A stretch of 64,000 nucleotides of DNA. Origin: Clostridiales bacterium UBA1742 (GTDB taxonomy: Bacteria > Bacillota > Clostridia > TANB77 > CAG-508). Both the position numbers and the translations under genes were made by a program. A model generated the notes under the pieces. It saw only the letters and a list, made by a program, of their open reading frames with translations. It was not told the DNA's origin and did no database searches. Shown one piece after another: positions 9,285-13,350 of the stretch. Each line of letters opens with the position of its first letter. Within the stretch, counting starts at the first letter, position 1. The DNA lies in the NCBI GenBank assembly GCA_002314935.1, contig DCHW01000030.1, positions 258 to 64,257 on the forward strand, read 5' to 3'.

Positions 9285-10046
9285 ATGAATGAAAAAGAAT
9301 TAAAATATTATAACAAAAGAGGAAATTGGAATTTTTCAGAAATAAAATGCATCATAGAAAAATTAACAAATTGGGATTATTATGAGAAAATAAAAGAAAA
9401 TTCAAATGAAAAATCACTTTGTTTAGATTTAGGAACAGGTGGAGGAGAAAAAGTTTTAAAATATTATCCAAAAGTTGGAATGATAATTGGAACAGATTTT
9501 GCAAAAGAAATGATTGAAACTGCAAGAAGGAATGCTTTAAAATATCCAGACAAAAATGTTAAATTTACTGTAATGGATAGCTTAAACATGACATTTCCAG
9601 CAGAAACTTTTGATTTGATATCTGCAAGACACACAATCATAAATGCAAAACAAATATACAAAACATTATCAAAAAATGGTGTATTAATAATTGAAGGAGT
9701 GGATAAAAAAGATTGTTGGGCAATAAAAGAATTATTTGGTAAAGGTCAAGCCTATAGTGATGAAATAGCTATATCTGAAAAAGATTATAACGACATAAAA
9801 GAAGCAGGATTTTCAAAAATAGAGAAAGTTAAAATATTAGAAAATGAATATTATGAAACAGAAGAAGATTTAATGAAATTATTAATTGAAACTCCAATAT
9901 TGGATAATTTTTCAGAAATAAGAAATGATTTTGAGCATTCTGGCAAAATAGAAAAAGAATTATTTGATGAATATGTAAGAAAGTTTAAAACAGATAAGGG
10001 AATATTATTAAAAAGAGTTTCTTATGGAATTGTGGCAGTAAAATAG
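9285..10046 (+). CDS. Class I SAM-dependent methyltransferase
   Basis: Motif I, CLDLGTGGGEKVL, plus a downstream acidic loop (GTDFAKEM) and FDLISARH. SD AGGAGAG upstream. Confidence 0.75.
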   Translation: MNEKELKYYNKRGNWNFSEIKCIIEKLTNWDYYEKIKENSNEKSLCLDLGTGGGEKVLKYYPKVGMIIGTDFAKEMIETARRNALKYPDKNVKFTVMDSLNMTFPAETFDLISARHTIINAKQIYKTLSKNGVLIIEGVDKKDCWAIKELFGKGQAYSDEIAISEKDYNDIKEAGFSKIEKVKILENEYYETEEDLMKLLIETPILDNFSEIRNDFEHSGKIEKELFDEYVRKFKTDKGILLKRVSYGIVAVK

Positions 10047-10056
10047 CTAAATATAG

Positions 10057-10086
10057 TTGACTTTGAATGGTTAATTATGGTAAAAT
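10057..10086 (+). promoter_or_regulatory. Sigma-A-type promoter candidate
   Basis: TTGACT, 18-nt spacer, TGgTAAAAT (extended -10), about 150 nt upstream of the GNAT gene. Confidence 0.4.
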
Positions 10087-10239
10087 ACTAATAATTTAAG
10101 AGTGTATCTAAGTGTTATATAATATACGAGCGGTACAGGGTAATAAAATTACCTACACTTTTTATAGGAAATAGAAGTCTTATGAAGGAGTCTTAATAAA
10201 GATTTTTTCATGAGGCTTTTTGTTTTAGGAGGGATGTAT

Positions 10240-10791
10240 ATGCAAACACAAAAATTAGAAACGGAAAGACTAATTTTAAGAAAACTTAAGTTAGAAGATG
10301 AAAATGAAATTTTTAATAATTGGACAAGTGATGATGAAGTATCTAAATATGTTAGATGGTCAATACATAAAAGTATTGAAGATACAAGAGAATATTTAAA
10401 AAATGTAATGGAAACATATAAAAAAGAGAAGAATGCTGAATGGGGAATTGTTTTAAAAGAAACAAATGAACTAATTGGAGCTTTGGGATGTTTTTTTAAT
10501 GATGAAGAGAATAGATATGAAATTGGATATAATATTTCAAGGAAACACTGGAGAAATGGATACACAACAGAAGCTTTAAAAAAAGTAATGGAATATTTAA
10601 TAAACGAAGAACATATAAAATCATTTATATGTTCACATGCAAAAGATAATCCTGCATCTGGAGCGGTTATGAGAAAAGCTGGTTTTAAATATGTAAAAGA
10701 TGATACTTATGAAAAATTTGATAAAAGTCAAAAATTTGATTGTAAAGTGTATTATTTAGAGGCAATAAATCTTACAAAACGTTCTAAATAA
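10240..10791 (+). CDS. GNAT-family N-acetyltransferase (RimJ/RimL-like)
   Basis: MQTQKLETERLILRKLKLEDENEIFNNW..., GYNISRKHWRNGYTTEALK, NPASGAVMRKAGFKY. ATG 10240 lies 7 nt after AGGAGG (10227-10232), so the track start at 10210 is probably too early. Confidence 0.75.
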   Translation: MQTQKLETERLILRKLKLEDENEIFNNWTSDDEVSKYVRWSIHKSIEDTREYLKNVMETYKKEKNAEWGIVLKETNELIGALGCFFNDEENRYEIGYNISRKHWRNGYTTEALKKVMEYLINEEHIKSFICSHAKDNPASGAVMRKAGFKYVKDDTYEKFDKSQKFDCKVYYLEAINLTKRSK

Positions 10792-10815
10792 TATAATATC
10801 TGAAGGAGAAAGATT

Positions 10816-10899
10816 ATGAATAATTTAATTAATTTTAAATTAAATAATTGGTGGAATGTATGGAAAAATAATCACCCATACAAATTTGTCGTGCTTTAA
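10816..10899 (+). CDS. Trp-codon-rich leader peptide (27 aa) of a trpB attenuator
   Basis: SD GAAGGAG is 6 nt upstream. The peptide is MNNLINFKLNNWWNVWKNNHPYKFVVL*, with TGG at 10849, 10852 and 10861. Its 3' end is part of an antiterminator. Confidence 0.6.
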   Translation: MNNLINFKLNNWWNVWKNNHPYKFVVL

Positions 10900-10967
10900 A
10901 ATATAGGATAAAGTAATATTTAAGCACATGTATGGAGTGATTTAAAAATCCATATATGTGCTTTTTT
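10876..10967 (+). promoter_or_regulatory. Transcription attenuator with alternative antiterminator and terminator
   Basis: Terminator: 10922-10936 aagcacatgtatgga pairs with 10949-10963 tccatatatgtgctt (15 bp), followed by a T-run. Antiterminator: 10876-10882 ccataca pairs with 10929-10935 tgtatgg, and 10891-10900 gtgctt(t)aaa pairs with 10919-10927 tttaagcac. The antiterminator sequesters the terminator 5' arm. Confidence 0.6.
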
Positions 10968-11053
10968 GTATGCTTTAAAGGAGGTGGTGCATATGGAATC
11001 TGACTGGCACTGGTTAAATATAAAGAATTATTTTAAGAAAGAAGGAATTAATT

Positions 11054-12208
11054 ATGAATTATGGAGAATTTGGTGGACAATATGTACCACAAGAATTAAA
11101 AGAAAAATTAAATGAAATTGAAGAAGAATTTTTAAAAGCAAAAGATGATGAAAATTTTAAAAGAGAGTATATGTATTATTTAAAGCAATATGTTGGAAGA
11201 CCAACACCACTCTATTATGCAGAAAACTTAACTAAATATGTAAATGGGGCAAAAATATATTTAAAAAGAGAAGATTTAAATCACACAGGGGCACATAAGA
11301 TAAATAATGCAATAGGTCAAATATTACTTGCAAAAAGAATGAATAAAACTCATATAATAGCAGAAACAGGAGCTGGACAACATGGAGTAGCTACAGCAAC
11401 TGTTTGTAGTTTATTTAATATTAAATGTACAATTTTTATGGGAAAAGAAGATATAAAAAGGCAAAAAGTAAATGTAGAAAAAATGAAATTATTAGGAGCT
11501 AATATTGTAGAAGTAAGTGAAGGAGAAGGAACATTAAAAGAAGCGGTTGATGTTGCTTTTAGATATTTGTTAGAAAATCCAGATGTATTTTATTTAATTG
11601 GTTCATGTGTTGGACCTAGTCCATATCCAGAAATGGTAAAATATTTTCAAAAAATTATCGGAGAAGAGGCTAAAAAACAAATATTAGAACAAGAAAATAA
11701 ATTACCTAAAGCAATTATTGCATGTGTTGGAGGAGGTAGCAATAGTATAGGATTATTTACGGATTTTATTAATAATAAAGAGGTAGATATATTTGGAGTA
11801 GAAGGTGCTGGATTAGGAGTTGAAACAGGAAAACATGCTTCTGCGATTTATAATAATAAAATAGGTATACTACATGGAATGAAAACGTATATAATGCAAG
11901 ATAATGATGGAAAAATTCAAGATGCATATTCAATATCGGCAGGATTAGATTATCCAGGAATTGGACCAGAACATGTTTATTTAAGTAAAATTGGAAGAGT
12001 AAAGTATGATAGTATAACAGATGAAGAAGCAATAGAGGCTTTTAAAATATTAACTAAATTAGAAGGAATAATACCAGCTTTAGAAAGTAGCCACGCAATT
12101 GCCTATGCAATAAAAATTGCTAAAAAATATAATAAGACTGATAGTATAATAGTTAATTTATCAGGAAAAGGAGATAAAGATATAGATACAATAACCAATA
12201 TGATATAG
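11054..12208 (+). CDS. trpB: Tryptophan synthase beta chain
   Basis: [26 protein letters not shown] (PLP lysine) and GGGSNSIG. No trpA or other trp genes are adjacent. Confidence 0.9.
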
Positions 12209-12216
12209 AAAAAAAG

Positions 12217-12240
12217 GAACACTCTTTATAAAGAGTGTTC
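12217..12240. terminator. Bidirectional terminator hairpin between convergent genes
   Basis: Perfect palindrome gaacactcttta/taaagagtgttc flanked by an A-run and T/C. It overlaps the last codons of the minus-strand gene. Confidence 0.55.
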
Positions 12241-13350
12241 TTCTGATTCTATAATTTGATTCCAAAAATGTTCTTGTTCTCCAGATATTTGAGCTAATTT
12301 GTTTATTCCCTCCTTATTTAGTTGTATATCAAATACACTAAGTGCACCATAGAAATCGTTATTTTTTACTAATTCAATATATTGTTTTATTTTTTTTACT
12401 CCATTTTCTTTATCATTTAAATATTGTTTTATAATTGTTGGATATATTAATCCTGCTATTGCATATCTTTTTTCAATTTGCATTCCTTCACCATTATTAT
12501 TTATAATGTTATCTAAAATTGCTTTTATATACTCAGGGTTAAAGTAATTATTAAGAATAGTATTTTTAATCCATTCTCTTGAAATTATATCCTCTTTTTC
12601 TTTTTGTTTTGCTAATAATAACATTGCATATACTTGTTCTGTATGGATATATAAGTTTTTAGTTCTATAGCATATATGTTCTTTAATTGCACTTCTAGAA
12701 TATGTTGTGTTTTTTAATAAATAATCAGTTAACATTCCTTCAAATAGAATAGTTATACTTTCTGATAATAAATCTACTGCATCAATTTTATCTTCTTCAA
12801 AATTTCCTTTTTCAATTAAGTCATTTTTTGTTGGAGCTGTATAAGTGTCTGGACGATCAAATAAATGAACAATTTCATGAACTAATGTATACAGTTCATC
12901 TATGGTAAGATGCTTATCGTCATTCACAGGAATATGTACTATAGAAAATCCTTTGCGGGAAGATACACTTCCACCGATATCATATTCTTTTATACCATTT
13001 TCATCTTGTAGATCATAATTTTTTATTTTTTTTCTATTATATATATTCATTTTTATTTTATTACTTTGCTGTAAAACAGTTTGGATTGCTTTATTATAAT
13101 ATTCTTCATCTATTGATTTGAAAAAATTCAACATAGTTTTTATAGCTTCTTCTTTACTTAAATATGTTTCTACAGCTTTGGGGCGACTTTTAATTGGTTT
13201 TCTATTAATAAGCATATTTTTTAAAGCGAATGTTAATAAATCATAATCAAGGTTAACAGCTTCTTTATCTTCTATTACATTATCTATTGAATCATTAAGT
13301 TTATTTATTGAATCATCATTTAAAATGTCTCCATTGTAAAATACAAGCAT
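12226..13350 (-). CDS. Hypothetical protein with an HExxH zinc-metallopeptidase motif
   Basis: LYTLVHEIVHLFDRPD is the only recognisable motif. No signal peptide. Confidence 0.5.
   Translation of the reverse strand: MLVFYNGDILNDDSINKLNDSIDNVIEDKEAVNLDYDLLTFALKNMLINRKPIKSRPKAVETYLSKEEAIKTMLNFFKSIDEEYYNKAIQTVLQQSNKIKMNIYNRKKIKNYDLQDENGIKEYDIGGSVSSRKGFSIVHIPVNDDKHLTIDELYTLVHEIVHLFDRPDTYTAPTKNDLIEKGNFEEDKIDAVDLLSESITILFEGMLTDYLLKNTTYSRSAIKEHICYRTKNLYIHTEQVYAMLLLAKQKEKEDIISREWIKNTILNNYFNPEYIKAILDNIINNNGEGMQIEKRYAIAGLIYPTIIKQYLNDKENGVKKIKQYIELVKNNDFYGALSVFDIQLNKEGINKLAQISGEQEHFWNQIIESEEHSL

Follow-up and report, generated by a model that had tools for sequence, protein, structure and literature searches.

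A candidate tryptophan leader-peptide attenuator and a second Trp-codon reading frame, in series before a lone trpB of uncultured gut Clostridia

In the trpL leader of Escherichia coli (Rfam family RF00513), a short open reading frame (ORF) that bears a Shine-Dalgarno sequence (SD) and adjacent tryptophan (Trp) codons lies ahead of an intrinsic terminator and the structural gene, four RNA regions offer the pairings 1:2, 2:3 and 3:4, and the placement of the stop codon lets a ribosome that finishes the ORF mask region 2. The amino-acid leader-peptide attenuators of proteobacteria and actinobacteria share these traits. Here we describe a leader with the same likenesses upstream of trpB, the gene for the tryptophan synthase beta subunit, in a 64,000-nucleotide (nt) stretch of DNA from Clostridiales bacterium UBA1742 (GenBank assembly GCA_002314935.1, contig DCHW01000030.1, positions 258 to 64,257 of the forward strand), referred to below as the window. 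Its trpL-type features comprise an SD-bearing short ORF (ORF1) with clustered Trp codons, an intrinsic terminator, an antiterminator that excludes it and, judged by geometry, the spacing of stall and stop sites. It differs from the E. coli leader in lacking a match to RF00513 and in its uncultured low-GC Clostridia host. Further differences are that the gene behind it is a trpB on its own instead of a trp operon, that the three Trp codons are distributed over five codons and the third of them belongs to region 1, and that a second Trp-codon ORF (ORF2) comes next.

For ORF2 the nearest described counterpart is in the Bacillus subtilis anti-TRAP (rtpA) operon, where a Trp T-box controls transcription and complete translation of RtpLP, a leader peptide with three Trp codons, prevents translation of RtpA (PMC2311275; the primary papers, Chen and Yanofsky 2003 and 2004, are listed in PMC10327191). 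Like that operon, the window has two predicted sensors of tRNA-Trp charging in series, the first acting on transcription and the second, a short Trp-codon ORF beside the gene, on translation. The rtpLP-type layout is evident in an ORF2 that stays open across the trpB start and has its Trp codons upstream of the trpB ATG. Four related loci (L022, L026, L037 and L129) have a T-box followed by ORF2, which is exactly the rtpA layout, and the ORF2 of L022 resembles RtpLP in ending directly at the trpB SD. In the window, however, the first sensor is a leader-peptide attenuator and not a T-box; ORF2, as in most loci, continues past the trpB start in a fixed frame that is not that of TrpB, here to a stop about 62 nt into the gene, whereas RtpLP stops before the SD; ORF2 has two Trp codons (codons 5 and 7) against three in a row; the regulated gene encodes an enzyme rather than an anti-regulator; and the function of ORF2 is a predicted one.

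Within the Firmicutes, leader-peptide attenuators for histidine have been described before hisS paralogues of the B. cereus group (PMC2965389) and before his operons of Peptostreptococcaceae and Erysipelotrichales (PMC9413887). These resemble the window leader in mechanism, in replacing T-boxes found in relatives and in being known by comparative genomics only, and differ in amino acid, in genes and in their unrelated sequences. Trp T-box leaders (RF00230) occupy the same position before the same gene, with the same signal, in orthologous loci; the window has no T-box, its sensing part being a translated ORF. A literature search found no description of a Trp leader peptide for Clostridia or ahead of trpB, although most subscription journals lay outside that search and an earlier description is possible. 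Taken alone, the predicted ORF1 attenuator is a new case of a known mechanism of textbook type; what is new is that two Trp leader peptides apparently follow one another, the second encoded by an ORF that is locked in frame and extends over the start of the gene.

Leader ORF1 and its alternative helices

We interpret the leader as a ribosome-mediated transcription attenuator that would sense charged tRNA-Trp and control the lone trpB, and give this reading, which is drawn from comparison of sequences, a probability of about 0.85. A preliminary description of the locus had proposed a 27-codon ORF behind the SD GAAGGAG with three TGG codons, in a genome where Trp codons are rare, and all of this was confirmed where it had been placed (Table 1). 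The TGG codons occupy 10849-10851, 10852-10854 and 10861-10863 (codons 12, 13 and 16; three in five codons), and Trp accounts for 0.70% of the residues in the long ORFs of the window, whose GC content is 26.6%. Against this background the probability of at least three Trp in 27 codons is approximately 9e-4, and a scan of both strands of the window found at least three Trp codons in only 4 of 766 ATG-initiated ORFs of 10-40 codons. The low background, the small probability and the scan together argue that the Trp enrichment of ORF1 is not due to chance. Among these four Trp-rich small ORFs, an SD is present only at ORF1 and at ORF2 (10993).

Table 1. Features of the trpB leader region (window coordinates)
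Feature	Coordinates	Strand	Remarks
Possible -10 box, TATAAT	10792..10797	+	At the site of the -10 box of relatives; read by eye; low confidence
SD of ORF1, GAAGGAG	10802..10808	+	7 nt to ATG 10816; an SD (mostly AAGGAG) is there in the 39 aligned leaders
Leader ORF1, 27 codons, MNNLINFKLNNWWNVWKNNHPYKFVVL	10816..10899	+	Stop codon 10897-10899
Region 1, tgtatgg, including the third TGG	10857..10863	+	Pairs with region 2a; anti-antiterminator or pause hairpin
Region 2	10872..10900	+	2a, tcac-ccataca, 10872-10882; 2b, gtgctt-aaa, 10891-10900, holds the ORF1 stop
Region 3	10919..10940	+	Partner of region 2 (10919-10927, 10929-10940); 10922-10936 is also the terminator 5' arm
Region 4	10949..10969	+	Terminator 3' arm 10949-10963, then T-run; from the minimum-free-energy fold
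SD of ORF2, AAAGGAGGTG	10977..10986	+	10-nt match to the anti-SD; 6 nt to ATG; kept in relatives
ORF2 (MESDWHW...), 40 codons	10993..11115	+	Stop codon 11113-11115; uncalled in public assemblies
SD of trpB, GAAGGA in AGAAAGAAGG	11041..11046	+	7 nt to the trpB ATG
trpB, tryptophan synthase beta subunit, 384 residues	11054..12208	+	Regulated gene; TIGR00263, 594 bits (cut-off 392)

The conservation of this leader was assessed in relatives of TrpB, scanned at one genome per species. The scan gave 55 loci (designated by L numbers), nearly all from metagenome-assembled genomes (MAGs) of uncultured gut or rumen Clostridia such as Clostridium sp. CAG:452 and Candidatus Scatovivens, with TrpB proteins 72-86% identical to that of the window. 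The same leader, with its SD, LNNWWxVW ORF, 1:2 hairpin, regions 2 and 3 and terminator, recurs in 38 loci, usually behind a canonical TTGACA-17-TATAAT promoter just before ORF1, and the LNNWWxVW core is conserved in these 38 genome loci and in 63 metagenome loci. Codon 13 is invariantly Trp, and every relative has at least two Trp within five codons. ORF1 comes in two length forms: one of 27-30 codons that ends in region 2b, and one of 18 codons (LNNWW[TN]VWKI, then the stop) that ends one or two bases 5' of region 2a. The genes that flank trpB in the window are missing from almost all related loci, which ties the leader to trpB rather than to the gene before it.

The minimum-free-energy fold of 10800-10975 (-39.7 kcal/mol; z-score of -4.3 against dinucleotide shuffles) holds the 15-base-pair stem 10922-10936/10949-10963 followed by UUUUUUGU, together with a 1:2 hairpin in which 10857-10863 pairs with ccataca 10876-10882 and which completes the classic four-region design. 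When the segment of regions 2 and 3 is folded without region 4, its minimum-free-energy structure is the antiterminator, formed by ccataca 10876-10882 with tgtatgg 10929-10935 and by gtgctt 10891-10896 with aagcac 10922-10927, and extended outward by TCAC 10872-10875 with GTGA 10937-10940. The preliminary description had pointed out the terminator with its T-run and the pairing of the ORF 3' end with 10919-10935, both of which recur in these folds, and had suggested comparing the two conformers, whose energies in the window are about equal, at -20.3 kcal/mol for 2:3 and -21.0 kcal/mol for 3:4 (1:2, -7.2 kcal/mol). The corresponding means over 39 loci are -18.4, -21.1 and -10.2 kcal/mol. Its list of elements holds as far as it was given, and missed the 1:2 hairpin, the TCAC/GTGA extension and ORF2 at 10993.

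Support for each helix was quantified in a 39-sequence alignment (A1), the columns of which number the pairs given here. In the terminator, 90.7% of cells are paired, with compensatory change in 10 of 15 pairs, and sliding the partner columns by 1-3 positions gives 21-75% pairing. The antiterminator is 84.8% paired with compensatory change in 10 of its 20 pairs. Its outer helix is 94.9% paired and covaries at 81/171 (CG 15, UA 12, AU 2), 82/170 (AU 23, GU 10, GC 4) and 83/169 (CG 33, UA 5), changes for which the terminator cannot account because the 3' partners sit in the terminator loop. Furthermore, the peptide encoded over this outer helix varies (HP, YS, RS, CS) while the pairing is maintained, which argues that the 3' half of ORF1 is constrained as RNA and not as protein. 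The 1:2 hairpin is 93.4% paired with compensatory change in 1 of 7 pairs, and RNAalifold independently gives this hairpin in a register one column further in, with a covarying pair 69/83 (GC 33, AU 5). Conservation of the Trp codons and of the alternative pairings in relatives, on which the preliminary description had made its attenuator depend, was thus found in 38 loci, with covariation in both helices; the trpL-type logic that it had put forward is supported by this conservation and covariation and by the geometry considered below.

Several observations weigh against the attenuator. The inner antiterminator helix is just 73% paired, its A-U end being poorly kept (the four-pair core is well kept). 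The 1:2 hairpin barely varies, so its support is mainly conservation, which coding might also explain, and the covarying pair 69/83 is an A-C mismatch in the window. The sequences are related, and shuffle controls therefore make significance look higher than it is; more weight can be put on the slid controls and on the covariation specific to the loop. Finally, no good promoter lies right before ORF1 in the window: the possible -10 box is just 4 nt from the SD, the sole -35-like hexamer (CTTACA, 10771-10776, with a 15-nt spacer to TATAAT) is poor, and a promoter scan gave none directly upstream of ORF1. The transcript may enter ORF1 from further upstream, for example by read-through from the acetyltransferase gene, which ends at 10791.

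A ribosome extends about 15 nt 3' of its P site. From the coordinates and this usual footprint, a ribosome at codon 12 or 13 of ORF1 would cover the RNA to approximately 10861-10864, that is, region 1; one at codon 16 would cover it to approximately 10873 and leave the core of region 2a free; and one at the stop would cover approximately 10882-10909, in region 2. By the same geometric argument, a finishing ribosome would mask region 2 in both forms of ORF1. We propose that, when Trp-tRNA is scarce, the ribosome stalls at Trp codon 12, 13 or 16 and covers region 1, whereupon region 2 would pair with region 3, the 5' arm of the terminator would be spent and RNA polymerase would read on. When Trp-tRNA is plentiful, the ribosome would reach the stop inside region 2 and mask it, and after its release the 1:2 pairing would be possible as well; the 3:4 terminator would then form and end transcription at the T-run near 10964-10969.

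The nature of the signal is suggested by an exchange of sensors. Before orthologous trpB genes, six loci (L012, L022, L026, L037, L042 and L129) have a T-box at the same position, with a specifier loop, GAA-UGG-A, that presents the Trp codon. These T-boxes score 84-89 bits (E-values of 1e-16 to 1e-18) against a curated cut-off of 93, so a scan at the gathering threshold found none and a scan by E-value recovered them. Exchange of T-box and leader peptide before one gene is a pattern already known (PMC2965389). A Trp T-box in the place of ORF1 speaks for tRNA-Trp charging as the signal, and supports the prediction that ORF1 senses it, in line with the shortage of Trp-tRNA that the preliminary description had named as the trigger.

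Three of these T-box loci also present a separate observation. In L022 (3587-3920), and likewise in L026 and L037, the full Trp T-box and its terminator are followed by a second T-box sequence with a terminator (aaaggtggcatagcaaga...ttttatttttt), before which no Stem I is recognisable; ORF2 and trpB come next. This second copy may be a degenerate tandem T-box.

ORF2 across the trpB start

Downstream of the attenuator, AAAGGAGGTG lies 16 bases past the terminator stem, and GGAGGTGGTGCATATGGAA has a single occurrence in the window. ORF2 carries Trp codons at positions 5 and 7 (11005-11007 and 11011-11013), crosses the SD and the ATG of trpB one base off the trpB frame and ends 62 nt inside the gene. 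Across 40 genome loci its start reads M-E-x-[DE]-W-x-W, with synonymous changes in the flanking codons (GAC/GAT, CAC/CAT, GAA/GAG), and the remaining peptide is not conserved. A scan of metagenome contigs for the pattern of the ORF2 start gave 74 loci, two of which are chance; about 70 of the 74 have ORF2 followed by trpB, all in the relative frame that prevails among the genome loci and at distances of 55, 58, 61, 64, 67, 70, 76, 79, 82, 103, 139 or 145 nt, and 63 have ORF1 upstream. ORF2 is thus conserved in about 100 loci. It also stands behind the T-box in the four loci with the rtpA layout, which marks it as a module independent of ORF1.

Among the genome loci, the frame of ORF2 relative to trpB is constant in 34 of 40, its start lying 55-100 nt upstream of the trpB ATG, and the frame that would end at the trpB ATGA overlap was never seen in the 40. 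Stop codons were counted from Trp codon 7 of ORF2 to the trpB ATG. In 37 distinct genome spacers the ORF2 frame has 4 stops in 539 codons, compared with 61 in 535 and 56 in 502 for the other two frames; in 42 further metagenome spacers it has 1 in 676, compared with 87 in 676 and 73 in 634. This depletion indicates that ORF2 is kept open up to and across the trpB start, and argues for its translation over the same stretch.

By analogy with RtpLP, we slightly favour the view that ORF2 hinders initiation at trpB and so exerts translational Trp control. ORF2 would ride on the transcripts that read through the attenuator. With Trp available, ribosomes that start from the strong SD of ORF2 would run over the SD and AUG of trpB out of frame and hinder initiation there, and the ORF2 stop, 62 nt inside trpB, would be too far downstream for a restart at trpB. 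Without Trp, a ribosome would stall at codon 5 or 7, approximately 40 nt upstream of the trpB AUG, where it would sit over the ORF2 start, block further initiation on ORF2 and leave the trpB start free. The dimensions are compatible with this scheme: a distance of 35-41 nt or more separates the Trp codons of ORF2 from the trpB ATG downstream, and a ribosome stalled at codon 5 or 7 would cover the RNA to about 11023, so that 12-18 nt or more would remain between it and the stretch needed by a 30S subunit on trpB. The fixed frame also fits hindrance, because it is the only frame that is neither fused to TrpB nor stops at the trpB start. At about even odds, trpB would then be gated twice by one signal, by the attenuator and by a structure-free, frame-locked ORF2 that represses through ribosomes crossing the trpB start, with no TrpB made and no site for reinitiation, and that is relieved by a stall at codon 5 or 7.

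Against hindrance by ORF2 stand, first, three loci from two lineages (L016, L023 and L052) in which it is in frame with trpB, and second, a few loci in which ORF2 is cut short by an early stop or carries only one Trp codon (L033, L039 and L017). Early ends occur in three loci: in L022, in the common frame and with a stop adjoining the trpB SD, and in L033 and L039 (by eye). In addition, the hindrance envisaged would act by transit, unlike that of the rtpLP ribosome waiting at its stop codon, and is putative and of uncertain strength.

Two of the in-frame cases belong to MAGs that hold two distinct leader-trpB copies on separate contigs (L003 and L016 in RGIG2998; L006 and L023 in SIG349). In the second copies, L016 and L023, the in-frame ORF2 would give TrpB an N-terminal extension of 20 residues, and ORF1 of L016 is shortened to 17 codons. 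In the window, 11062-11078 (trpB codons 3-8) reads as three more Trp codons (LWRIWW) in the ORF2 frame, a consequence of the conserved TrpB N-terminus (TATGGA...TTTGGTGGA) combined with the codon choices TTT and GGT.

Other ways for ORF2 to act on trpB were considered and set aside. An ermC-like hairpin to be opened by a stalled ORF2 ribosome is not supported, as no shared hairpin covers the trpB SD in 18 loci and the ORF2-trpB region folds more weakly than shuffles in most; unmasking of the SD by melting of a hairpin is therefore unlikely. A hunger-induced +1 frameshift from ORF2 into trpB fails on sequence, since re-pairing in the +1 frame is not possible for the P-site codons UUA and AUU. 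Between the ORF2 start region and region 4, about 6 base pairs at most could form, and ORF2 is conserved behind T-boxes that have no region 4.

A rather unlikely alternative, though the best placed of those considered, gives ORF2 another task, namely that its SD and a stalled ribosome shield the mRNA from 5'-to-3' decay, as in ermC leaders and STAB-SD elements of Bacillus, or that it merely keeps the region unfolded. The highly conserved 10-nt match of its SD to the anti-SD, the low degree of structure relative to shuffled controls and the position of the stalled ribosome, 5' of trpB, would all suit such a role, which nevertheless does not account for the single frame kept open over the trpB start or for the absence of the frame that would end at the trpB ATG. 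Protection and hindrance are not exclusive and could act jointly.

Competing explanations for the switch

The remaining alternatives concern the attenuator itself. That the switch is set not by a ribosome but by a trans-acting factor (a TRAP-like RNA-binding protein, an uncharged tRNA or a small molecule) would agree with the usual control of trp genes in Firmicutes and with the T-boxes of related loci, and we nonetheless judge it very improbable. An Rfam cmscan of 9500-12500 with E-values up to 10 returned no leader family, the T-box (RF00230) and RF00513 included, and gave chance-level matches only (miRNA and sRNA models with E-values of at least 0.66). TRAP-type runs of (G/U)AG triplets (nine to eleven, at 2-3 nt spacing) are absent from 10791-11060. 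Upstream of the switch no structure is conserved; what is conserved there is an SD, a start codon and Trp codons, and the ORF1 stop always falls in or just before region 2.

It is more improbable still that the hairpin 10922-10963 is a plain terminator, of the acetyltransferase gene or constitutive, and that the small ORFs arose by chance in AT-rich DNA. The end of the acetyltransferase gene at 10791 and the want of a strong promoter between it and ORF1 lend this view what appeal it has. The comparative data nevertheless contradict it: the element goes with trpB in loci from which the flanking genes are nearly always missing, the relatives have a canonical promoter right before ORF1, and conservation takes in the SD, the Trp codons and the covarying antiterminator. 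In addition, only 2 of the 766 small ORFs have both an SD and at least three Trp codons.

Equally implausible is a TnaC-like device that would respond not to the availability of charged tRNA but to free tryptophan, sensed by the growing peptide of ORF1 or ORF2 inside the ribosome tunnel: the LNNWWxVW core is more conserved than Trp codons alone need and an acidic residue is kept before the first ORF2 Trp, but a stall on free Trp would bring read-through at high Trp, the wrong direction for a Trp-forming enzyme, the ORF2 Trp residues at positions 5 and 7 come too early to fill the tunnel, and the T-box replacement points to tRNA charging.

The lone trpB and its setting

The trpB gene stands alone, as the preliminary description had said. 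A tblastn search of the 64-kb window with the proteins of three ordinary trp operons found among distant matches (L044, L046 and L050) gave no homologue of trpA, trpC, trpD, trpF or trpG, TrpB being the sole match, and none of these genes lies within 4 kb on either side of trpB in the related loci, where trpB is likewise alone. The block AAGAAAGAAGGA around the trpB SD is kept among related loci. Upstream of trpB in the window lie the acetyltransferase gene (10210-10791) and a methyltransferase gene; on its 3' side are a convergent gene without known function and adhE. No extra copy of the ORF1 or ORF2 leader motif occurs elsewhere in the window. The same locus is present in other public assemblies, in which neither ORF1 nor ORF2 is called as a gene.

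Further hairpins occur in the surroundings. On the minus strand, 12217-12240 forms a perfect 10-base-pair hairpin (gaacactctttataaagagtgttc) with T-runs, between the trpB stop (12208) and the end of the convergent gene (12226), and is probably a bidirectional terminator common to both genes. At 10057-10123 and 10173-10220 there are two promoter-like sites and, after them, a long and imperfect hairpin resembling a terminator, which overlaps the acetyltransferase start (10210); this region may be another leader or attenuator.

Some related loci depart from the common arrangement. In L049 (1-266), a distant trpB (54% identity) follows a different short ORF, MFNSFNWWRM, with hairpins and a terminator (aagcccgttggtatg...catacaacgggtttttt) and without ORF2; this short ORF may be an independent Trp leader. 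In L062, about 130 nt of GC-rich sequence containing inverted repeats (gtagggacgaccattggtcgtc...) are inserted after the attenuator terminator and ahead of the ORF2 SD; in the otherwise AT-rich leader this insert looks like a small mobile repeat. In L082, about 90 nt upstream of ORF2, a promoter and SD are fused to the terminator, ORF1 and region 2 are gone and ORF2 ends early, so that this leader may be decayed or permanently terminated.

Leader-peptide attenuation is textbook translation-coupled control that is rarely seen in Firmicutes, where T-boxes and TRAP serve for tryptophan, and the present leader would be a conserved Trp version, with covariation, in abundant uncultured gut Clostridia. 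Close relatives with a Trp T-box at the same place suggest that the two types of sensor are interchangeable parts. Two sensors placed in series had previously been known only in the B. subtilis anti-TRAP operon, and ORF2 suggests a simple, structure-free form of translation control by amino-acid supply; as a portable module that is also found behind T-boxes, it would be the equivalent, in bacteria, of repressive overlapping upstream ORFs. That ORF1 and ORF2 are unannotated in public assemblies marks a gap in annotation. The lone TrpB presumably makes Trp from indole and serine. Among gut bacteria, TrpB is documented to use indole in Bifidobacterium (PMC11085991), and some gut genomes are known to encode just the final step of the Trp pathway (PMC9026213); the lone trpB described here points to a regulated use of indole, plentiful in the gut, by organisms that otherwise seem unable to make tryptophan.

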